Source: a virus | Taxonomy: Duplodnaviria > Caudoviricetes | DNA length: 64,000 nt | Direction: 5' to 3' (one strand) | IMG/VR virus record: IMGVR_UViG_3300032295_003840 | Coordinates: 1 to 64,000 of that record | Part shown: piece after piece, positions 38,631 through 48,051 of the stretch | How the letters are laid out: each line of letters opens with the position of its first letter | Position numbering within the stretch: the first letter of the stretch is position 1 | Program-made: the position numbers and the translations under genes | The notes under the pieces: model-generated | Databases searched by the model: none | The model's input: the letters and a program-made list of their open reading frames with translations, nothing else | Told to the model about the DNA's origin: nothing

Positions 38631-39173
38631 ATGACTCCAGAAAAGAAGCCTCTTAGTAGAAGCGAAAGAGAAGCCCAGATCAAAGACAAAGCTGGATGGG
38701 TTATTACTGTGCTTGCTGCTCTTTTGGCCATTAATACTTATGTTGCTAATAGCAATAGTAGTAAGGTATTGAAGAACACCATCAGTGCCAACAATACCTG
38801 GGCCTTTTATCAGGCCAAGAGCATCAAACAGACACTGGCTGAACAGAGCCTGGACGATGCTTTGAATCGCGGAGATCGGGCAAAAGCCGATCGCCTGCAG
38901 AAAAAGATTGAGCGCTATGAGTCCGATCCCAGCACAGGAGAAGGTAAACGAGAACTCATGGCCAAGGCTCGAGCACTGGAAGCCGAGCGTGATGCCATAG
39001 CCAAAAAAAGTCCTTGGATGACTTTTTCGGGTAGCACATTTCAAATCAGCATCGTCCTACTCACTGCCAGCATCTTGGCAGTCAGCATGCCCCTGTACTG
39101 GGCCAGCATTGGAGTAGGTGTTCTAGCCACCCTGCTGATGTCTCAGGGCATCTGGTTGTGGCTACCATTCTAA
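38631..39173 (+). CDS. DUF4337-like membrane protein
   Basis: ITVLAALLAI, WAFYQAKSIK, FQISIVLLTAS. Confidence 0.75.
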   Translation: MTPEKKPLSRSEREAQIKDKAGWVITVLAALLAINTYVANSNSSKVLKNTISANNTWAFYQAKSIKQTLAEQSLDDALNRGDRAKADRLQKKIERYESDPSTGEGKRELMAKARALEAERDAIAKKSPWMTFSGSTFQISIVLLTASILAVSMPLYWASIGVGVLATLLMSQGIWLWLPF

Positions 39174-39189
39174 CCGTCAAGGAGGTACC

Positions 39190-39489
39190 ATGCGTACCCT
39201 GCTCATAGCTGCACTGCTGTTGATGTCTGGTCTGGCATCAGCTCGCCAATTTGAATTTGAAAAGACCATAATCTGTGACGATACCCGCACCGTGTTTGAG
39301 TATTTCCAAAGCGGCAAGTATCAGGAAAAGCCAGTCTGGATTGGTCGGGATCTGGTAGAAGCCGCAGTAAGTCATGTCATGATGTTGAATAAACAAACCG
39401 GTACCTGGACACTGATTCAGTTCGATGAACAGTATGCCTGTGTGCTGGCCGCTGGCGAGAACTATCAGCTCATGGGCGAAAAAATCTGA
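39190..39489 (+). CDS. Secreted hypothetical protein
   Basis: Signal peptide; TGTWTLIQF..ACVLAAG. Confidence 0.7.
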   Translation: MRTLLIAALLLMSGLASARQFEFEKTIICDDTRTVFEYFQSGKYQEKPVWIGRDLVEAAVSHVMMLNKQTGTWTLIQFDEQYACVLAAGENYQLMGEKI

Positions 39490-40163
39490 TGCGCTGGTTA
39501 GTCGTACTGTGCCTGGTGATGTCCTGCCAGGCACAGGCCCTGACTGCACGCAGCTGGTTGATTACCGATACTGACTTAAATGTGCAGTCTGGTCATAACT
39601 ACCGTGAACTGCGCAGCATTGCCAGTCTGACCAAGCTACTAACTGTCATGGTCTCCATAGACGATGGCACTGCCAGACCCGAGCTGGTTAAACTGGCCAT
39701 GGTGAACAGCAGCAATTCAGCAGCCACGCAGCTCTGTAAAAACTACAGTCGTGGTTATCAGGCCTGCATACGAGCCATGAACGAAAAGGCCATGCGGTTG
39801 GATGCCTGGAATACCTATCTCTATGACTCTACAGGACTGGATCGACGCAACCGCAGCACAGCACAGGACATAGCACGCATTGTACTGGCGGCCAGAAACT
39901 ATGCACAGATAGTTGAGTCTAGTCATATACTCAGAGATCGTAAAAAGAAAATGGTGCTGAAGAATACCAACCCCTTGGTAGGCACCTTCAACACCACGGT
40001 TAGCAAGACAGGCTGGACCATGGCTGCTGGTGGTTGCATAGCAGTGCTCATAGAAAATCGCATCTATGTCCTGCTGGGCAGTCGCAACACCAAGACTCGA
40101 GTCACTGAACTTGCTCAATTGGTACGGGCAGAGGGAGTCGAACCCTCAAAACTCGGATTTTAA
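39489..40163 (+). CDS. D-alanyl-D-alanine carboxypeptidase/endopeptidase (peptidase S11)
   Basis: IASLTKL (SxxK), SSN (SxN), SKTG; signal peptide. Confidence 0.9.
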   Translation: MRWLVVLCLVMSCQAQALTARSWLITDTDLNVQSGHNYRELRSIASLTKLLTVMVSIDDGTARPELVKLAMVNSSNSAATQLCKNYSRGYQACIRAMNEKAMRLDAWNTYLYDSTGLDRRNRSTAQDIARIVLAARNYAQIVESSHILRDRKKKMVLKNTNPLVGTFNTTVSKTGWTMAAGGCIAVLIENRIYVLLGSRNTKTRVTELAQLVRAEGVEPSKLGF

Positions 40164-40195
40164 GTCCGATACGTATACCATTCCGTCATGCCCGC
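40120..40195 (-). tRNA. tRNA-Leu(TAA), short variable loop
   Basis: Cloverleaf, TCGGA-CTTAAAA-TCCGA, CCA encoded. Confidence 0.88.
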
Positions 40196-40199
40196 AATT

Positions 40200-40276
40200 T
40201 GGTCTCCGTAGCAGGGTTCGAACCTGCGACCCCCAGTCCCCCAGACTGGTGCGCTACCGGGCTGCGCTATACGGAG
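40200..40276 (-). tRNA. tRNA-Pro(GGG)
   Basis: CCAGT-CTGGGGG-ACTGG, CCA. Confidence 0.92.
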
Positions 40277-40846
40277 TTAATTCCAGTTGGTCGGAGCGCC
40301 CTGCAGGCCTGGATTGCCTCCCTCGGCGCGACTGCGTTTTAAAACTTCTTCCAGCAGTATAGGGCGGAAGTCGGTCTGTTCAACACAGACGCAGAAGTAA
40401 CGCAGATCAATTTCCTGATTGTCTAGACGCACACGCTTTTCATGCGTGTGTCCATGAATGTTCAGACCAAAGCGACCATGACTTTCAGGATGCAGGGGTA
40501 TGTGACTTAGTATGACACCTGCACCTGTCATGACATGATAGGCTCGGATGTCTCGAAAGTACTTGGTGTAGTCTTCGAGCTTGAAGATGTCGTGGTTGCC
40601 CTTGATCAGCACCTTGTCGCCGTTGAGACGATCCAGCGTGCTGAGTGCCCGACGATTGATCACCACGTCGCCCAGATGATAGACCTTGTCGCCAGGTCGT
40701 ACTGCGTCATTCCAGCGACGCACCATCTCATCATCCATTTCTTCGGGCGTGTCCCAGGGACGAAGCTTGGTACCATCCTGGCGTGTAAAACGGCATACGC
40801 CCAGATGACCAAAATGTGTATCACTTACTAACCATACTGCAGGCAT
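40277..40846 (-). CDS. Metallophosphoesterase
   Basis: SDTHFGH, HLGDV, KGNHD, SHIP, HGHTH. Confidence 0.92.
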   Translation of the reverse strand: MPAVWLVSDTHFGHLGVCRFTRQDGTKLRPWDTPEEMDDEMVRRWNDAVRPGDKVYHLGDVVINRRALSTLDRLNGDKVLIKGNHDIFKLEDYTKYFRDIRAYHVMTGAGVILSHIPLHPESHGRFGLNIHGHTHEKRVRLDNQEIDLRYFCVCVEQTDFRPILLEEVLKRSRAEGGNPGLQGAPTNWN

Positions 40847-40865
40847 TTTATACTCCTGTTGATTG

Positions 40866-41804
40866 TCAAGGTGCTTCGCCGAATCTGGGTCGATCCAGCA
40901 ACAGATCAGTTGTTGGATTCCAGACACCGGATATGTTCCAGTCTGTGCTGACAGCACCAACTGGTAGTCGACCTGTGCTGAGGTTCACCATGGCGCTGGT
41001 CATGGTATCGCGATTAGCAAAGTTTAAATGGAAACTGGCCGGCCCGCGTCGATACTTGGTTATGTCGAATCTCTTGGCCACCCAACGCCCACCAATATAT
41101 TCTCCAAATACTTCAGGTCCCAGTATGACATCGTCCAGCATGACATGATCGGCGACGCGCATGTCGGCATAGGGTGTTGACCCATAGATGCCTATGTAAT
41201 TGGCGAAAGTAGGGTTGTTCATATATCCATTGTTGCCCAGCGTTGGCTGTGTGTTGACGTTTAAATTGGTCTGACGTTCTCCATTGACCCACAGACGTAC
41301 ACGATCAGTAATGGCGGCATTGTTGATGTCCGCAGTTAAATGTACATTGTGCCATTGATTCAGGGGCCAGGCCTTGTTGGTAAGTATTCTCCAACGAAAC
41401 ACCGACGACACATAGGCATAGGCATCAATGGTGCCAGTGGTAGTAAAACCAATGTTGTCATAGTTACCAGATGAATTGTAGGCTGCCATGAAGTAGTTGT
41501 TGCCGACAAAACTCAGTTGCTTGACCCAGACATTGATGGTATAGGTCTGTGCATTGGCACCTGCAGGACACAAACGCACCAGATGCTGACTGGCCCGGGC
41601 CGCTGTGAACTGTATGCTGGTCGGTGGACGATAGCTGGCTTGACCATCAAAGCTGTTGAAACTCACAGGGCTGGTATCGCCAGGTAATCGATCCAGTGTG
41701 TCTAAAACTCTGGGATCACCCAGAGACACAGGTCCAGCACCCAGAGCCAGCTCGTTGCGCAGATCGTCGAAGCTGTACTGCTGTCCAGGTTTATTTAATG
41801 CCAC
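40866..41804 (-). CDS. LamG/concanavalin-A-like lectin, probable adhesin
   Basis: YTINVWVK, WHNVHLT, RLWVNG; adhesin-like N-terminus (YSFDDLRNEL..SFNSFDG); GTG start inferred. Confidence 0.65.
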   Translation of the reverse strand: MALNKPGQQYSFDDLRNELALGAGPVSLGDPRVLDTLDRLPGDTSPVSFNSFDGQASYRPPTSIQFTAARASQHLVRLCPAGANAQTYTINVWVKQLSFVGNNYFMAAYNSSGNYDNIGFTTTGTIDAYAYVSSVFRWRILTNKAWPLNQWHNVHLTADINNAAITDRVRLWVNGERQTNLNVNTQPTLGNNGYMNNPTFANYIGIYGSTPYADMRVADHVMLDDVILGPEVFGEYIGGRWVAKRFDITKYRRGPASFHLNFANRDTMTSAMVNLSTGRLPVGAVSTDWNISGVWNPTTDLLLDRPRFGEAP

Positions 41805-42315
41805 GACGTAACTCCTGCACCTGTTGATCCAGTTCCTGTATGGCAGCAATCAGCAGAGGCACCAGACGTTCGTAGCGCACAGTAAGGTACGCTGGATCCA
41901 CGGGTGCGGGTGCTACTGCCTCGGGCAGTTGTTGCTGCACCTGCTGAGCACTGACACCTACTTCGCGTACTGCAGGATCATAGCCCAGCCCAGCTGCGGT
42001 CTCGTTGGCATGATAGTAAAATGCCGACAGTGCACGCACACGCTGCAGAGCGTCTTCGATGCCGCCTAACTGTGTCTTGAGACGTTCATCAGAATAGTAG
42101 GCTGTGATGTTCTTCGTGGCCAGTATCTCACCAGGCACGCCGATGTGATCAGTACCAACACTCAGACTATTCAGAAACACCTGAGGATCATTGCTGGTGG
42201 GTATGGCAGTGCGCACCTGTTGCTGCTGAATTCTGGGCGCAATGGCCGAACCCGCGGCTGGCACTGTTGACTGATAGCTTGGCTGAAACTGTTTATTGCT
42301 GGTTGTATTGGGCAT
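41791..42315 (-). CDS. Short fibre protein with peptidase S74 chaperone domain
   Basis: ITAYYSDERLK, VGVSAQQV..PEAV, VRYERLVPLLIAAIQEL. Confidence 0.85.
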   Translation of the reverse strand: MPNTTSNKQFQPSYQSTVPAAGSAIAPRIQQQQVRTAIPTSNDPQVFLNSLSVGTDHIGVPGEILATKNITAYYSDERLKTQLGGIEDALQRVRALSAFYYHANETAAGLGYDPAVREVGVSAQQVQQQLPEAVAPAPVDPAYLTVRYERLVPLLIAAIQELDQQVQELRRGIK

Positions 42316-42348
42316 GGCTTACTCCTGACAGATTATCAGGTATTTATC

Positions 42349-42424
42349 TGGCGCGGCTGGCAGGAATCGAACCCACATCGGACGCTTTAGAAGAGCGTTG
42401 CCTTATCCATTAGACCACAGCCGC
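42349..42424 (-). tRNA. tRNA-Arg(TCT)
   Basis: ACGCT-CTTCTAA-AGCGT, CCA. Confidence 0.92.
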
Positions 42425-42429
42425 GTTGT

Positions 42430-42834
42430 TCATCGAGTCAGTTCGCCCAGAGCTCGATATCCCTTGTAGGTGGGATGCACACCGTCGGCACTGATGTTGG
42501 ATTCTGGTCTGAGAATAATGATGTCAGTGAACTCAGTGGCAACCTTGGTCACAGCTTCTACCTGCTTGGGCTTGAGACGAGCGCTGGGCAGAATCCAAAA
42601 AACTCGATCTGCCTTGGCATTGGCTCGAAGTTTCCTAACATTGGCTTCGGTGTCCACACCCAGGTCATTGGCACCCAGACTGATGATCAGAGTACGTGCT
42701 GGTTTCAGTTTGTGCAGATGCAGCTGATTCCAATTTGCAGAGTTGATGCCACTCTTGGCAATGCTCTGACATTCAGTGCGGACCTGACTTACTCCTACGG
42801 CGATGCTATCGCCTACGATTAGACATTCTATCAT
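42430..42834 (-). CDS. SGNH/GDSL hydrolase-like protein
   Basis: GDSIAVG, SLGAND, DGVHP. Confidence 0.85.
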   Translation of the reverse strand: MIECLIVGDSIAVGVSQVRTECQSIAKSGINSANWNQLHLHKLKPARTLIISLGANDLGVDTEANVRKLRANAKADRVFWILPSARLKPKQVEAVTKVATEFTDIIILRPESNISADGVHPTYKGYRALGELTR

Positions 42835-43304
42835 GCTACTCTCAATCCTTTGAATCGATCCGCAGCATAGCTGGCAGCAAATGCTCGGGGTTTAACCATG
42901 GGCACGACGTTGCAGGTGCCGCGAATGTAGCCAACAGCTTCGTTGATTACACAGCTGGAACCATGAAGCTCGTCAGGGTTGATGTCCAGATGTACTTCGA
43001 CCCGACGATCCTCCAGCACGTCATGCAGCTTTTGATACAGTTCAGCAATCTTGTAGACTTCATTCATGAGCCGCATGCGCGGACGAGCCTTTTTCTGATC
43101 CCAGTCACGCTCACGGCTTACTTCGCCAAAAATCTTGCAGCCATTGTTGCCGTTGATGTGCACTACAATGACCATGATGTAGTCTGCGTACCAGTCATTG
43201 CCAATCTTGATGCGCTCACTGTCGCCACCGATGTAGATCTTGGTGTCGGGAGTCTGTGCTTCAATGAAGCCTCGTACTTGTTCAATGTCAATAACTGGTC
43301 GCAT
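42831..43304 (-). CDS. RNase H-like YkuK family protein
   Basis: IYIGGDS, RLMNEV, EVHLDIN, AASYAAD. Confidence 0.85.
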   Translation of the reverse strand: MRPVIDIEQVRGFIEAQTPDTKIYIGGDSERIKIGNDWYADYIMVIVVHINGNNGCKIFGEVSRERDWDQKKARPRMRLMNEVYKIAELYQKLHDVLEDRRVEVHLDINPDELHGSSCVINEAVGYIRGTCNVVPMVKPRAFAASYAADRFKGLRVA

Positions 43305-43320
43305 TTTACCACCTTTAATT

Positions 43321-43394
43321 TGGCATCCCGCTAGGGACTCGAACCCCAACCAACGGTTTTGGAGACCGCTATGCTGCCATTACACCAGCGAGAT
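43321..43394 (-). tRNA. tRNA-Trp(CCA)
   Basis: GCGGT-CTCCAAA-ACCGT, CCA. Confidence 0.92.
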
Positions 43395-43397
43395 ATT

Positions 43398-43601
43398 TTA
43401 CTTGATCAACTGTGTTTCCTCATTGTACCTGGTCTTGCGGTCCTCGGCCTCCAGAGCCGACAACACACAATCTTCAGTGCTGAGTATATCTTGAAAATCT
43501 GCAGGTCTTTTTTTCTTGAAAATGCTGTCCCAGTTATTGCTGAATGTTTCGGCATCTACACTCAGAGGCCTGGGACGACTTCCTTTACCACCATCACTCA
43601 T
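43398..43601 (-). CDS. Hypothetical protein
   Basis: MSDGGKGSRPRPLSV..NWDSIF. Confidence 0.65.
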   Translation of the reverse strand: MSDGGKGSRPRPLSVDAETFSNNWDSIFKKKRPADFQDILSTEDCVLSALEAEDRKTRYNEETQLIK

Positions 43602-43628
43602 TGTATTACCTCCTGACAACAATGTCAA
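43600..43628 (-). promoter_or_regulatory. Promoter within tRNA array
   Basis: TTGACA-17-TACAAT. Confidence 0.65.
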
Positions 43629-43636
43629 GTTATATA

Positions 43637-43712
43637 TGGTGCACCCTCCAGGGATCGAACCTGGTTCATCGGTTCTTCAAACCGCTGCTATGACCACATC
43701 AGCTAAAGGTGC
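43637..43712 (-). tRNA. tRNA-Phe(GAA)
   Basis: loop TTGAAGA, CCA. Confidence 0.9.
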
Positions 43713-43713
43713 C

Positions 43714-43789
43714 TGGGGAGTTGTATGAGGATTGAACTCATACTATCTCGGTCACAGCGAGATGTGCAGACCACTACACTAACAACTCC
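43714..43789 (-). tRNA. tRNA-His(GTG)
   Basis: TCTCG-CTGTGAC-CGAGA, G-1:C73, CCA. Confidence 0.92.
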
Positions 43790-43795
43790 ACGGAC

Positions 43796-43869
43796 TGGTC
43801 TCGGTGGAGGGAATCGAACCCCCGCCGCATGCTCCCAAAGCACGCATGATGCCATTTCACTACACCGAG
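43796..43869 (-). tRNA. tRNA-Pro(TGG)
   Basis: loop TTTGGGA, CCA. Confidence 0.92.
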
Positions 43870-43873
43870 TATC

Positions 43874-43948
43874 TGGAGCGGGTGACAGGGATCGAACCTG
43901 CGACGAACAGCTTGGAAGGCTGACACTCTACCACTGAGTTACACCCGC
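43874..43948 (-). tRNA. tRNA-Gly(TCC)
   Basis: loop CTTCCAA, U73, CCA. Confidence 0.93.
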
Positions 43949-43954
43949 ATTGTT

Positions 43955-44030
43955 TGGTGGGCCCACTAGGATTTGAACCTAGACTCAACGGATTATGAGT
44001 CCGCTGCTTTAACCATTAAGCTATAGGCCC
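43955..44030 (-). tRNA. tRNA-Ile2(CAT), probably lysidine-type
   Basis: GGGCCTA acceptor, loop CTCATAA; Ile2 vs Met is inferred. Confidence 0.75.
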
Positions 44031-44034
44031 TGAC

Positions 44035-44110
44035 TGGTGCTGCCAATGAGATTCGAACTCATGACCTCTGCCTTACCAAGGCAGCGCTCTACCGCTAGAG
44101 CTATGACAGC
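44035..44110 (-). tRNA. tRNA-Thr(GGT)
   Basis: CTGCC-TTGGTAA-GGCAG. Confidence 0.93.
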
Positions 44111-44111
44111 C

Positions 44112-44186
44112 TGGTGCATCGTGAGAGGATTGAACTCCCGACCTTCGCCTTGTAAGGGCGCAGCTCTACCGCTGAGCTAACGATGC
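44112..44186 (-). tRNA. tRNA-Val(TAC)
   Basis: loop CTTACAA. Confidence 0.92.
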
Positions 44187-44191
44187 ATAAC

Positions 44192-44266
44192 TGGTGCCCC
44201 TTGAAGGAATCGAACCCACACACCCGGACTACAAAACCGGACCTCTACCATTAAGGATAAAAGGGC
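44192..44266 (-). tRNA. tRNA-Thr(TGT)
   Basis: CCGGT-TTTGTAG-TCCGG, CCA. Confidence 0.85.
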
Positions 44267-44267
44267 T

Positions 44268-44343
44268 TGGTGGTGATGGAGGGAATCGAGCCCCCGACCC
44301 TCTGCGTATGAAGCAGGTGCTCTACCAACTGAGCTACATCACC
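44268..44343 (-). tRNA. tRNA-Met(CAT) elongator
   Basis: loop TTCATAC, CCA. Confidence 0.85.
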
Positions 44344-44347
44344 TGAT

Positions 44348-44421
44348 TGGTGCGGGCGGAGAGAATCGAACTCTCAACTAAACGTTGGCAACGTCTGATT
44401 TTACCATTAAACTACGCACGC
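44348..44421 (-). tRNA. tRNA-Gly(GCC)
   Basis: loop TTGCCAA; A73. Confidence 0.88.
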
Positions 44422-44426
44422 ATGTC

Positions 44427-44502
44427 TGGCTGCCAAGGTAGGGATCGAACCTACGACCAATTGATTAACAGTCAACTGCTACTACCACTGAGCTACTTGG
44501 CA
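44427..44502 (-). tRNA. tRNA-Asn(GTT)
   Basis: GTTGA-CTGTTAA-TCAAT. Confidence 0.93.
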
Positions 44503-44505
44503 ATA

Positions 44506-44742
44506 TTACTTGTTGGATACACAGATATCGCCTTTGAACAAATAGACATTGCTGTCTACTCTAGCCTGTTCAAAGAGCTGGTTGTCTACGCAGATATAGG
44601 GATCTTTGTAGTTGTTGAACCAATAGTATGCACCAAACCCCAGTCCTGCCAGAATCAGCAGTATGGGTATGTATTTGATATACTGGACAATGACTGGCAT
44701 TGAACCCAGTATCTGTGGCAGGAATTTTAGAAATTCTTTCAT
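44506..44742 (-). CDS. Small membrane protein
   Basis: TM helix; late-promoter-like CATAAATA upstream. Confidence 0.65.
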   Translation of the reverse strand: MKEFLKFLPQILGSMPVIVQYIKYIPILLILAGLGFGAYYWFNNYKDPYICVDNQLFEQARVDSNVYLFKGDICVSNK

Positions 44743-44753
44743 GCCACTATTTA

Positions 44754-44845
44754 TGGCGGTGAAGGTGGGATTCGAACCCACGGATCAACTTTCGTCAATC
44801 GACGGTTTAGCAAACCGCTGCCTTCGGCCACTCAGCCACTTCACC
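44754..44845 (-). tRNA. tRNA-Ser(GCT)
   Basis: loop TTGCTAA, long variable arm, G73. Confidence 0.93.
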
Positions 44846-44851
44846 TATAAT

Positions 44852-44928
44852 TGGTTGCGGTGTCTTGGATTCGAACCAAGGATCTTCGGCTTATGAGGCC
44901 GACGGGATGACCACTTCCCCAACCCGCA
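44852..44928 (-). tRNA. tRNA-Met(CAT), initiator-like
   Basis: TGCGGGT 5' end, TCGGC-CTCATAA-GCCGA, ..CCGCAACCA 3' end. Confidence 0.75.
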
Positions 44929-44930
44929 AT

Positions 44931-45005
44931 TGGTGCACCAGAAAGGAATCGAACCTTAGGTCTATCGATTATCAATCGATTGCTCTACCATTGAGCTACT
45001 GGTGC
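44931..45005 (-). tRNA. tRNA-Ile(GAT)
   Basis: ATCGA-TTGATAA-TCGAT. Confidence 0.93.
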
Positions 45006-45007
45006 CG

Positions 45008-45202
45008 CTAGGCTAACTGATCCACATTCATGCCCTTGGCATGGTCTTTCAGCACACCCTGTGTAGTATATAGTGTTACTGCATAGCTATAACGTTCAAC
45101 CTGAGTAACATCATTGCCTTTGTCATAGTCAAAGGTTGTTCTTTTTTCTATGGTGCGAAGGGCTCCATGCACACCATAATAGGTCGCTGTCTGTATCTCC
45201 AT
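45008..45202 (-). CDS. Hypothetical protein
   Basis: AAGGAG RBS, MEIQTATYYG..KGMNVDQLA. Confidence 0.6.
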   Translation of the reverse strand: MEIQTATYYGVHGALRTIEKRTTFDYDKGNDVTQVERYSYAVTLYTTQGVLKDHAKGMNVDQLA

Positions 45203-45212
45203 GTTTCTCCTT

Positions 45213-45287
45213 TGGCGGTCCCAAGGGGTAACGATCCCCTTCTTACGGCGTGACAGGCCGTCGTGCGTCCATGAACACTTTGGAACC
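45213..45287 (-). tRNA. tRNA-Asp(GTC)
   Basis: ACGGC-CTGTCAC-GCCGT; atypical T-loop ATCGTTA. Confidence 0.88.
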
Positions 45288-45409
45288 TTAGAAGAGTCTT
45301 CTGCACTATTTGCTATGCTCAACGGAGTGTCCTCGAGGTTTTACCGTCTGTGTACATAGTTACTCAGGCATGATCAAGCCCATGGCTTACAAAAGACTCA
45401 TCTAAGGTT
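45284..45409 (-). ncRNA. Candidate structured RNA enclosed by long helix
   Basis: AACCTTAGA-T-GAGTCTTTTG...CAGAAGACTC-T-TCTAAGGTT closing stem; no ORF. Confidence 0.5.
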
Positions 45410-45595
45410 GCTTGGGCTACTTGATTTCCAGTCATAGCCCCCAAGCTGAGTTGTTACCCTGTCCATCATTATATTGGTCATTTCCACGAATAATGAAACG
45501 CTGCTATGTTGTCTGCTTACGTATGCGCTGACGGTGCCATAGCCACCGGGACTTTATCGTTACCACACGCCAATTTCAGGAAATTGGTAACCGGA
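45410..45595 (-). ncRNA. Candidate structured RNA directly after promoter
   Basis: Several stems (GTTACCA/TGGTAAC, CGGTG/CACCG, TCATTA/TAATGA, GCTTGG..GGCTA/TAGCC..CAAGC); no ORF. Confidence 0.5.
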
Positions 45596-45601
45596 TTCTT
45601 C

Positions 45602-45629
45602 ATTGTAGCACCTTGATGCTAGATGTCAA
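45602..45629 (-). promoter_or_regulatory. Promoter within tRNA array
   Basis: TTGACA-16-TACAAT. Confidence 0.7.
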
Positions 45630-45636
45630 GCATTTT

Positions 45637-45711
45637 TGGTGGACCGTCAGAGAATCGAACTCTGACCTCTGCGGTGCAAACGCAGCGTGCTCCCATTATC
45701 ACTAACAGCCC
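45637..45711 (-). tRNA. tRNA-Ala(TGC)
   Basis: CTGCG-TTTGCAC-CGCAG, G3:U70. Confidence 0.93.
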
Positions 45712-45716
45712 AAAAA

Positions 45717-45791
45717 TGGCCGGTCCGGAGAGATTCGAACTCCCGACAGCTGGTTTCGAAGACCAGAACTCTTCCGCTGAGCTACGGACCG
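45717..45791 (-). tRNA. tRNA-Arg(TCG)
   Basis: CTGGT-CTTCGAA-ACCAG. Confidence 0.92.
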
Positions 45792-45796
45792 ATGCT

Positions 45797-45871
45797 TGGC
45801 AGGGGGTATAGGGATCGAACCTATGCATGGCGGGATCAAAACCCGCTGCCTTACCTCTTGGCGAACCCCCA
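45797..45871 (-). tRNA. tRNA-Gln(TTG)
   Basis: GCGGG-TTTTGAT-CCCGC. Confidence 0.92.
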
Positions 45872-45878
45872 ACTAACT

Positions 45879-45954
45879 TGGTGCCCCAGGGGAGATTCGA
45901 ACTCCCAGAATTTGGTTTCTAAGACCAACACGTATACCGTTCCGTCACCAGGGC
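45879..45954 (-). tRNA. tRNA-Leu(TAG), short variable loop
   Basis: TTGGT-CTTAGAA-ACCAA, CCA. Confidence 0.88.
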
Positions 45955-45961
45955 AAAAACT

Positions 45962-46048
45962 TGGTGGGTGCTCTCCGACTCGAACAGAGAAGGCCTAAGA
46001 CAACGGATTTACAGTCCGCCCCCGATACCATTACGGGACTAAGCACCC
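45962..46048 (-). tRNA. tRNA-Tyr(GTA)
   Basis: loop CTGTAAA, variable arm. Confidence 0.9.
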
Positions 46049-46055
46049 TACAACT

Positions 46056-46131
46056 TGGAAGTTGGAGTGAGACTCGAACTCACATTGACGCAGATTTGCA
46101 GTCTGCCGCGTAGCCTTTCCGCCATCCAACC
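46056..46131 (-). tRNA. tRNA-Cys(GCA)
   Basis: GCAGA-CTGCAAA-TCTGC, U73. Confidence 0.92.
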
Positions 46132-46286
46132 ATATAGAAACACACTAATGAACCAGCCTGACGCAGCCGTACGCTTGGCAGATCGTTTCCAATCTGTTTA
46201 TCGCTTTTCTCGGTACTCTGTATGTTCAGGATTCCGCAGTCCTCAGTACAATTGCTTGCAAGGGCAATCAATGTGTTTTTATATGG
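46130..46286 (-). ncRNA. Candidate structured RNA between tRNA-Lys and tRNA-Cys
   Basis: CCATATAAAAACACA...TGTGTTTCTATATGG closing stem with internal hairpins. Confidence 0.5.
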
Positions 46287-46358
46287 TAGGGGTAGTAGGG
46301 ATCGAACCTACGGCCAATGGATTAAAAGTCCACTGCTCTTCCTCTGAGCTATACCCCC
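46284..46358 (-). tRNA. tRNA-Lys(TTT)
   Basis: GTGGA-CTTTTAA-TCCAT. Confidence 0.92.
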
Positions 46359-46360
46359 AA

Positions 46361-46435
46361 TGGTACACCGTAGGAGAATCGAACTCCTCTTTACGCCTTG
46401 AAAGGGCGTCGTCCTAACCGATAGACGAACGGTGC
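46361..46435 (-). tRNA. tRNA-Glu(TTC)
   Basis: ACGCC-CTTTCAA-GGCGT. Confidence 0.93.
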
Positions 46436-46480
46436 GTATAACCTGCAAATTTTTAAAGATCAACTACTACAAGAAACTCT

Positions 46481-46508
46481 ATTGTAGCACCTTGACGCAC
46501 AACGTCAA
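46481..46508 (-). promoter_or_regulatory. Possible promoter within tRNA array
   Basis: TTGACG-16-TACAAT. Confidence 0.6.
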
Positions 46509-46559
46509 GCTTTTTTTCAAATAACCCTACGTCGTGTAAGGTTAATATACTGCTAATCC

Positions 46560-46651
46560 TGGCGGAGGGCGGAGGAGTCGAACCCCATCCACTTTCGCAG
46601 AACCTGGTTTTCAAGGCCAGTCGCAGGACCATCCCCGCTGCATCACCCTCC
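46560..46651 (-). tRNA. tRNA-Ser(TGA), first tRNA of the array
   Basis: loop CTTGAAA, long variable arm, G73, CCA; enlarged D-arm. Confidence 0.88.
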
Positions 46652-46659
46652 AAGTACAT

Positions 46660-46696
46660 AAACAAAAACCCCGAGCCTTTTGGGTCTCGGGGTCTT
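46660..46696 (-). terminator. Intrinsic terminator of putative attenuator
   Basis: ACCCCGAG-ACCCAAAAGG-CTCGGGGT followed by TTTTGTTT, 8 nt before tRNA-Ser. Confidence 0.85.
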
Positions 46697-46736
46697 GGTT
46701 TAGCTACCTGCTCTAGTTACGCTATACCCGACCCCC
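46689..46736 (-). promoter_or_regulatory. Putative antiterminator helix overlapping leader stop codon and terminator 5' arm
   Basis: GGGGTC-G-GGT-A-TAGC pairs with GCTA-A-ACC-AA-GACCCC. Confidence 0.7.
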
Positions 46737-46833
46737 GACTATTATCCCATGCGCCTGTTGCAAAGCGGTACTCTGGCTGCATGGTGCATCCATGAATACT
46801 GGGCTTCAGCGATGAGGATATGAGGTGTTGCAC
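46717..46833 (-). CDS. Putative attenuator leader peptide (38 aa, codon-diverse)
   Basis: AGGAG RBS 5 nt before GTG; MQHLISSSLKPSIHGCTMQPEYRFATGAWDNSRGSGIA*. Confidence 0.7.
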   Translation of the reverse strand: MQHLISSSLKPSIHGCTMQPEYRFATGAWDNSRGSGIA

Positions 46834-46861
46834 AACGACTCCTAGTTGATTAATTACTGCC

Positions 46862-46890
46862 ATGATATAGTATATATCTGTTCTTGTCAA
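46862..46890 (-). promoter_or_regulatory. Promoter for leader peptide/tRNA array
   Basis: TTGACA-17-TATCAT. Confidence 0.7.
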
Positions 46891-46916
46891 GAAAAATCAG
46901 AACTTTTTAAAAAATT

Positions 46917-47135
46917 TTACCTAAATGTATACCAAAAACCAGTCATGTAGATGGCCAGTAACCCAGCATTGACTATGACCAGATTCAATTCACGAATGCG
47001 GATAGCCCAGAGCAGATACAGCAGGCTACCAGCATTGCATAAAAAGATGTTCATGGGGTCGATACGAAAGCTGGTGCATAAAGCTCCAGCAATCGTACAA
47101 ACCAGCGCAGTCCATTTCAGTATATTATTTAGCAT
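46917..47135 (-). CDS. Small multi-TM membrane protein
   Basis: Three hydrophobic segments; ATG 6 nt after the -10 box. Confidence 0.7.
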   Translation of the reverse strand: MLNNILKWTALVCTIAGALCTSFRIDPMNIFLCNAGSLLYLLWAIRIRELNLVIVNAGLLAIYMTGFWYTFR

Positions 47136-47141
47136 ACTACC

Positions 47142-47170
47142 ATTATAGCACCTTGCTAGCCAGCTGTCAA
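47142..47170 (-). promoter_or_regulatory. Early promoter
   Basis: TTGACA-17-TATAAT. Confidence 0.85.
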
Positions 47171-47191
47171 GCACTGTTTTCATCAATGAAA

Positions 47192-47488
47192 TCAAGCAGT
47201 TAGCGTAGTGCTGGGCATGATGATGCCTGCGCCATAGACACGATCGTATTGAGTGCGCAGATCCTCGGCTGGATTGCTGGTCACCACAATCTTGTCATGC
47301 TTGACGGTAAACTCTTTGTCGGCACTGTAGGGAATCCACTGACTCAGGCCCACACTGGGTACTCCAGTTTCTGTGGGGCGAATATAGACAATCAGAGGAT
47401 TGCGAATCTGCACACCAACGTCACCACTGTCCACAATCTCGGCCAGTACATCTTCGCCTGTGACCAGACGCATTAATTTAATTTCCAT
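47192..47488 (-). CDS. Conserved T4-like Sm-like small protein
   Basis: IKLMRLVTGEDVLA..NPL..WIPYS..GIIMP. Confidence 0.75.
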   Translation of the reverse strand: MEIKLMRLVTGEDVLAEIVDSGDVGVQIRNPLIVYIRPTETGVPSVGLSQWIPYSADKEFTVKHDKIVVTSNPAEDLRTQYDRVYGAGIIMPSTTLTA

Positions 47489-47529
47489 GATGACTCCAAG
47501 ATGCGGCGGGTTGCCCCGCCGCGGTTTAA

Positions 47530-48051
47530 TTACAGACTGGTTTCAATCTGTGTTTTTTCATTTTCAGTCAGCAGTTGTTTTTTTCTGCTGCCTTCCTTGA
47601 CTTCGATCTTCTTGGGCTTCTTGTGCTCGGGAATGATGCGTTCCAGAGCAATCTGCAGCATGCCGTTGAACAAGGCTGCATCCTGAATCTCAATCTGATC
47701 GTTGAGTGCGAATGTGCGGGTAAACGCACGATTGGCGATACCTTTGAAGACATAGTCGGCATTGTTGTCTTCTTTGGTGTTGCCACGCACTACGAGCTTG
47801 TCATCCACAAATTCAATCTCAATGTCCTGACGAGCAAAGCCTGCCACGGCCATTTCAATGACATAGGTGTTCTCACCGGTCTTGCGAATATTGTAGGGAG
47901 GATAGTTGGGAATATCCTTGGTCACATCATCGTGTAGCTTGGCCAGACGATTGAACTGTTCTTCAAAACCAACAAAGAATTTGTCAATGCCCTTGAACAT
48001 TTCTTCAGGGTGTATTTCGGTATTAAGTTTAAATGGTCTTGTTGTGATCAT
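47530..48051 (-). CDS. Small heat-shock protein Hsp20
   Basis: NYPPYNI, EMAVAGF, GIANRAFTRTF, NGMLQI, PEHKKPKKI. Confidence 0.95.
   Translation of the reverse strand: MITTRPFKLNTEIHPEEMFKGIDKFFVGFEEQFNRLAKLHDDVTKDIPNYPPYNIRKTGENTYVIEMAVAGFARQDIEIEFVDDKLVVRGNTKEDNNADYVFKGIANRAFTRTFALNDQIEIQDAALFNGMLQIALERIIPEHKKPKKIEVKEGSRKKQLLTENEKTQIETSL

Follow-up and report, generated by a model that had tools for sequence, protein, structure and literature searches.

In trp and ilv attenuation, the position of a ribosome on a leader sets whether a terminator or an antiterminator forms. The E. coli trpL leader has a 1:2 protector or pause structure, a 2:3 antiterminator and a 3:4 terminator, the last being thermodynamically stronger than the antiterminator, and a ribosome at the stop codon masks segment 2; its two Trp codons lie in segment 1 and its ORF ends before segment 2. 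The ilvGMEDA, ilvBN and thr leaders are likewise short and translated, contain codons for several amino acids and form mutually exclusive antiterminator and terminator structures between which ribosome position decides, but their regulatory codons occur in runs of two to three kinds and the genes controlled encode bacterial biosynthetic enzymes. In the pheST leader (pheM), attenuation is applied to a gene of the translation apparatus and not to a biosynthetic pathway, although what this leader senses via its Phe codons is a single amino acid, and the gene controlled encodes a synthetase instead of tRNAs. T-box riboswitches also couple tRNA status to the choice between terminator and antiterminator upstream of translation-related genes; however, they bind uncharged tRNA directly, do not need translation and are specific for one tRNA. 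A search of the full-text literature yielded no published description of tRNA genes under the control of a leader-peptide attenuator, nor of a leader containing all amino acids.

Here we describe an element at the head of a phage tRNA array that we regard as somewhat more probably than otherwise a ribosome-mediated (leader-peptide) transcription attenuator. It lies in a window of 64,000 nucleotides that opens a phage genome of 166.9 kb on a single contig; the gene content is T4-like (a family-B DNA polymerase, relatives of the clamp loader and RegA, and an Hsp20 protein). The element follows the segment plan of trpL, from which it differs in that its ORF runs through segment 2 and in that its 1:2 pairing is weakly supported. 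It departs from the ilv and thr leaders in using about one codon per amino acid, in the tRNA genes that it would control and in being encoded by a phage. The class of mechanism is textbook; what is new is that the targets are tRNA genes, that phages are the owners and that the sensor has one of everything.

Table 1 Features of the leader region and tRNA array (window coordinates unless a locus is named)
Feature	Position	Strand	Basis or remark
Leader promoter, sigma-70-type: -35 TTGACA (46890-46885), 17-nt spacer, -10 TATCAT (46867-46862)	46862..46890	minus	11/12 consensus matches
Shine-Dalgarno AGGAG, 5 nt before GTG	46839..46843	minus	read from sequence
Leader ORF, 38 codons + TAA	46717..46833	minus	GTG start at 46833, TAA 46719-46717
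Segment 1, candidate protector: start-codon region and codons 1-6, pairs with ORF 3' end	46816..46837	minus	minimum-free-energy fold
Segment 2, antiterminator strand: ORF nt 94-114, part of codon 32 to codon 38	46720..46740	minus	ends just before stop
Segment 3: terminator 5' flank and 5' arm, complementary to segment 2	46683..46705	minus	duplex energy and family covariation
Intrinsic terminator: hairpin 46695-46666 (segments 3 and 4), U tract to 46660	46660..46695	minus	-21 kcal/mol including flank
tRNA-Ser(UGA), CCA encoded	46564..46651	minus	sequence and Rfam tRNA-clan match
Sigma-70-type promoter: TTGACG, 16-nt spacer, TACAAT	46481..46508	minus	precedes tRNA-Glu and remaining array
tRNA array, bulk	40120..46435	minus	26 ARAGORN tRNAs plus Tyr-GUA
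tRNA Tyr-GUA, long-arm	about 45966-46048	minus	absent from ARAGORN list
Array-internal promoters	45629 and 43628	minus	
Two leader-terminator units with complementary amino-acid sets	L051:641-775 and L051:5967-6089		each before a block whose amino acids it contains

The anatomy of the element is complete in the window, where promoter, Shine-Dalgarno sequence, ORF and terminator are followed by a promoterless tRNA-Ser gene (Table 1). The leader promoter, from which transcription would start near 46855, recurs in the close relatives L002 and L007 and in most other members of the family described below, and the AGGAG Shine-Dalgarno sequence is kept in L002, L007, L017 and L092. The terminator hairpin is GC-rich and lies about 21 nt past the leader stop codon. 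The gene for tRNA-Ser(UGA) begins 66 nt past that stop codon and 9 nt past the U tract, and therefore has no promoter of its own. The leader uses 19 of the 20 amino acids, Val alone being absent internally, and represents each by 1-6 scattered codons. Runs of regulatory codons are absent except for Ser-Ser-Ser, which is spelled with three different codons. Codons 1-27 contain no repeat, GCA at codon 28 being the first to recur; the distinct codons number 30 among the first 31, 33 among the 37 internal codons and 34 among the 38 of the whole ORF. No Pfam family matched the leader, and an Rfam cmscan of 39000-48000 (E ≤ 1) returned tRNA-clan and chance matches only, without a leader family and without a T-box (RF00230, with its specifier loop and conserved T-box sequence).

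The array comprises 28 tRNAs covering all 20 amino acids, namely the 26 found by ARAGORN together with Ser-UGA and Tyr-GUA. The latter two have long arms and were overlooked by ARAGORN; in Rfam they give sub-threshold matches to the tRNA-Sec clan of 36 and 31 bits. Several further features of the surroundings were observed. Just upstream of the leader, a 72-aa membrane-like protein is encoded at 46917-47135 (minus strand; weak DUF6552 match below the Pfam cut-off), preceded by a 98-aa protein at 47192-47488 (minus strand; weak DUF6561/Sm-like matches below the Pfam cut-offs), and the Hsp20 gene is located at 47530-48051. Within the tRNA region, genes at 41791-43349 (minus strand) encode an RNaseH-like protein (PF04308), a GDSL-lipase-like fragment and a protein with an endosialidase-chaperone (Peptidase_S74) domain. 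Directly 3' of tRNA-Ser, at 46515-46560 on the minus strand, an 8-bp hairpin (AACCUUAC/GUAGGGUU) is followed by AUUUG and a run of A, an arrangement that is kept in L002. As a weak terminator or as a processing signal, this hairpin could make tRNA-Ser a separate unit before the 46508 promoter.

The terminator has an alternative partner in the end of the leader ORF. In the window, the duplex between segments 2 and 3 reaches -25.6 kcal/mol, compared with -14.2 +/- 2.5 for codon shuffles, none of 300 of which was as good, and the duplex was significant (P ≤ 0.04) in 16 of the 18 members collected in the first round. The helix is formed by sequences that differ widely among members, for example GGGUUUUGUG/CACAAGACCC, GGGGUUCGUGU/ACACGAACCC, AGGGGUACGGUGUAG/CUACACCGACCCC and CAGGGGGUC/GGACCCCCG. 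RNAalifold returned the 2:3 helix as the consensus structure of 15 sequences. In that alignment the helix is 96% paired, against at most 58% in slid controls, and contains compensatory changes (UA>GC in five sequences and UA>CG in two) that give a covariation score above all of 500 shuffles. Covariation was assessed on these 15 sequences; an 18-sequence MAFFT alignment, in which some rows were out of register, was dropped. The distance from the end of segment 2 to the ORF end is always 0-19 nt (3 nt in the window), within which a terminating ribosome would mask the segment.

A long hairpin is predicted for the ORF region (window z = -4.3; family mean z = -1.7), and in 24 of 32 members the minimum-free-energy fold joins the head of the ORF (codons 3-9) to segment 2, the pairing of the candidate protector. 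Since the energy of the 1:2 duplex was not significant against codon shuffles, we rate this predicted pairing as probable only. When the ORF head was masked, the terminator still won in the equilibrium folds of most members. The terminator being the more stable structure at equilibrium, the choice between the two would have to be kinetic, i.e., made co-transcriptionally, as in trp.

Relatives of the leader were examined in about 120 IMG/VR loci collected through a neighboring gene and two DNA patterns. On contigs of uncultured phages, some 30 ORFs that are related or analogous to the leader precede tRNA arrays, and all accommodate 19-20 amino acids within 30-43 residues. A homologous small ORF with an intrinsic terminator occurs in the close relatives L002 and L007, in the increasingly distant L004, L017/L092, L043, L011 and L012, and in the groups L041/L070/L080, L015/L114, L104/L020 and L095/L085; in all 18 first-round members the terminator is found 8-40 nt past the stop codon. 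A sequence-blind scan for all ORFs of 26-44 codons with a terminator behind them gave 140 ORFs in the roughly 120 phage loci. The number of different amino acids in these ORFs is bimodally distributed, with 33 ORFs containing 19 or 20. Sixteen of the 33 had been missed by the peptide profile (L014/L038, L029, L031/L075, L035, L042, L047, L062, L089, L091, L096, L105, L110, L118 and L103), L103 being one likely chance case. A tRNA gene follows on the same strand within 400 nt in 29 of the 33 ORFs with at least 19 amino acids, compared with 14 of 95 with 17 or fewer. The same division is reflected in the pairing of the ORF tail with segment 3, whose mean duplex energy is -18.2 kcal/mol in the former and -8.4 in the latter (P = 3e-12); for the 16 ORFs that fell outside the framing of the hypothesis the mean is -17.7 (P = 4e-7), and a control duplex with the head of the ORF averages -3.7.

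Of 50 arrays captured with their 5' end, at least 22 have an ORF of this kind, which is an undercount because duplicates and cases with 18 residues were excluded. Among cultured phages (50,697 records), neither DNA nor peptide searches found a similar leader: blastn with the leader regions of the window and of L041 gave tRNA-Ser matches only, and tblastn with two leader peptides gave only chance matches with E of 6-9. In Stenotrophomonas phage DLP_6, the nearest named relative, the syntenic place is without a tRNA array. A profile search matched two called proteins in a database of 5.8 billion; such ORFs are rarely called as genes, and the breadth of the family is not measurable via called proteins. 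The frame is open across about 30 loci, through indels in about 20 lineages, although the lineages are non-independent and this openness is partly ascertained, as the family was gathered by ORF-based scans.

The completeness of the amino-acid set is a property of the whole family. Every member ranks within the top 0.3-5% of six-frame ORFs of the same length for this measure. When residues shared with the nearest lineage were held fixed, the variable positions completed the set of 20 beyond chance in seven of ten lineages (P 0.01-0.05). Individual residues shift position between members while the set is kept: in L095 relative to L015, His is lost from an HKP motif and regained by an R>H change in EYR, and Arg is regained elsewhere.

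The initial annotation had gone further, suggesting that the leader codons mirror the isoacceptor pairs encoded in the array. Its inventory is accurate: all of the codon pairs it listed are found (Pro CCC/CCA, Thr ACC/ACA, Gly GGA/GGC, Ile ATA/ATT, Ser TCA/AGT, Gln CAA/CAG and His CAC/CAT), Gly being encoded by GGG and GGT as well, and TTA/TTG, AGA/AGG and an internal Val codon are indeed absent. The codon diversity to which it drew attention is also unusual, the probability of at least 30 distinct codons among 31 being 7e-5 under the codon usage of the genome and 1.3e-3 under uniform codons, and that of at least 33 among the 37 internal codons 5.6e-4. Given the peptide, however, 33 distinct codons have P = 0.015 under genome usage and P = 0.085 under uniform synonymous usage. 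All 18 first-round members exceed the codon diversity expected from the codon usage of their own locus, eight of them at P < 0.05, and under the uniform-synonymous null two of 32 leaders are significant. Selection for synonymous diversity is not claimed on this basis; the diversity of codons is mostly due to the diversity of amino acids.

The mirroring of isoacceptors itself holds as a description of the window but is within chance once the peptide is given: the leader engages 24 of 27 elongator tRNA species, where 22.5 are expected (P = 0.22). Against a random-ORF null, 23 of the 26 species found by ARAGORN are engaged versus 16.3 expected (P < 3e-4). The proposed correlation with the tRNA set of each phage emerged as a weak family trend. 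In 14 near-complete arrays, 302 tRNA species are engaged versus 282 expected, with 12 of the 14 phages above expectation, and 424 of 510 codons are readable by phage tRNAs versus 399 expected. In a separate comparison, the readable fraction of leader codons, 0.89, is barely higher than the gene average of 0.81. Isoacceptors are mirrored in a weak trend at most. It is amino acids that are matched robustly, and what is conserved is a representative of each amino acid, not a codon for each isoacceptor.

This match extends to the content of the array behind the leader. Leaders with 19-20 of the 20 amino acids precede arrays that hold tRNAs for all 20. In L051, which has a split array, the second leader is without Asp and Glu only, two amino acids for which the block that follows it (Y Q F C R I K H M W A) contains no tRNA; the first leader, from which C, K, R, V and W are missing, stands before E, D, P, L, S and M. 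The leaders of L087 and L034 behave alike, their amino-acid sets tracking the tRNA block behind. These split arrays, which represent two independent lineages and correspond to roughly P~0.03, support the general idea that the leader may mirror the tRNAs.

From this arrangement we infer that the ORF is translated, that stalling of the ribosome drives the switch and what signal is sensed. In the proposed mechanism, the strong early-type promoter would drive a 38-codon ORF in which nearly all amino acids are represented by one codon or a few; segment 2, made up of roughly the final seven codons, can pair with either segment 1 or segment 3. A ribosome that reaches the stop codon quickly would cover segment 2, allowing the 3:4 terminator to form and ending transcription before tRNA-Ser(UGA). 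Scarcity of an aminoacyl-tRNA would instead hold the ribosome in the body of the ORF and leave segment 2 free when segment 3 emerges; the 2:3 antiterminator would then form and RNA polymerase would read into the tRNA genes. Slow reading by ribosomes would probably increase the output of phage tRNA and, as every amino acid is sampled by the leader, we propose that a shortage of any tRNA raises phage tRNA synthesis. Such a shortage might arise, for example, from cleavage or decay of host tRNAs in infection, and restored decoding would shut the synthesis down. As the codons are single, the element would be tuned to severe depletion and not to mild starvation; classical leaders use runs, and the scattered codons seen here would give low sensitivity to a mild shortage.

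Control by the attenuator would be partial. Near-consensus sigma-70 promoters with 10-12 of 12 matches are observed on the minus strand at 47170, 46890, 46508, 45629 and 43628. With five promoters punctuating the region, the array is presumably transcribed from several starts and not solely via the attenuator. The promoter at 46508, which is strong, is situated 60 nt beyond tRNA-Ser; the attenuator would on that account strictly gate only tRNA-Ser in this genome and otherwise add to constitutive transcription. A promoter lies between the terminator and the first tRNA in about half of the family.

The same translation-coupled switch could report the general capacity for translation (ribosome availability, initiation, amino-acid starvation or host shut-off), with the leader serving as an 'average' message. 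Single scattered codons would indeed confer weak specificity, the codon-level match to phage tRNAs is weak, and without a ribosome or a firm 1:2 protector RNA polymerase would read through by default, so that any loss of translation would induce. We nevertheless consider this reading unlikely, since an average message needs no Trp, Cys, His and Met each within 30-40 codons and amino-acid completeness is actively maintained. Furthermore, the residues missing from the leaders of split arrays are exactly those with tRNAs in another block, and the element is tied to tRNA genes.

It is also conceivable that the ORF is an independent early gene for a small functional peptide that merely adjoins the tRNA array, its pairing with the terminator being incidental or stabilizing the 3' end. 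It would then be a self-contained unit of promoter, ORF and terminator, in keeping with the separate tRNA promoter of many members, and recurring motifs (KP, EYR, W and GFCV) could be read as those of a peptide. However, the differences between homologs point elsewhere. They are spread evenly over codon positions 1/2/3 (e.g., 6/6/4, 10/7/9 and 12/13/12 in pairwise comparisons), without the third-position excess of a conserved peptide, and nonsynonymous changes dominate over synonymous ones; an alignment of 28 peptides has no invariant column and a mean column identity of 22%. This even spread argues that the peptide is not what is conserved, and here the initial annotation was borne out in holding that selection does not act on the peptide sequence. 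The conserved blocks are instead conserved at the nucleotide level and coincide with RNA helices: the motifs HKP, EYRT, CAD and GFCV are helix strands of the long ORF hairpin, and the recurring motifs covary with their partners. Taken with the lack of a Pfam match and with a tRNA-Ser that has no other promoter in the window, these observations make a peptide gene very improbable. An arrest peptide of the TnaC/SecM type was considered and rejected, as the distances from Trp to the stop codon and to segment 2 vary and no column is invariant.

On the comparisons available, what is conserved is the RNA helices, the open frame and the completeness of the amino-acid set. In eight members (L041, L070, L080, L014, L038, L047, L089 and L096), the leader ATG follows exactly 6 nt after the end of the -10 box, an arrangement that suggests a leaderless mRNA in which the start of the ORF is tied to the start of the transcript; the remaining members have a 5' UTR of 28-48 nt, with AGGAG in the clade of the window. 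Least probable of all is an untranslated structured RNA (a small RNA, or a 5' leader guiding the processing of tRNA precursors) with the ORF as a by-product, for although the ORF region forms a long hairpin, conservation is at the nucleotide level and the T4 tRNA cluster carries stable non-tRNA RNAs, such an RNA matches no Rfam family and would leave unexplained a frame kept open through indels, a Shine-Dalgarno sequence or, at constant spacing from the -10 box, a leaderless ATG, the retention of all 20 amino acids and a stop codon that always follows segment 2 within 0-19 nt.

If the element is a leader-peptide attenuator, it would offer a compact natural 'all-codon-class' translation probe and an annotation signature for phage tRNA operons that gene callers miss, and it would carry textbook attenuation beyond amino-acid operons to tRNA genes. 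Current ideas on the reasons for which phages have tRNAs, and on the timing and dosage of these, include the tuning of codon usage, the replacement of a decaying host pool and the evasion of tRNA-targeting defenses. Tentatively, and with somewhat less confidence than we place in attenuation as such, the 'pangram' leader of phages with complete tRNA arrays may act as surveillance: loss of any one tRNA species, for instance through anticodon nucleases of the host or tRNA decay induced by infection, would stall the ribosome and switch on a replacement set of tRNAs, and restored decoding would switch it off, providing a homeostatic, demand-driven supply of tRNA through what would be the first leader-peptide attenuator known for tRNA genes. 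The phage would then be measuring the state of the tRNA pool, which would favor the replacement and defense-evasion views of why phages carry tRNAs.
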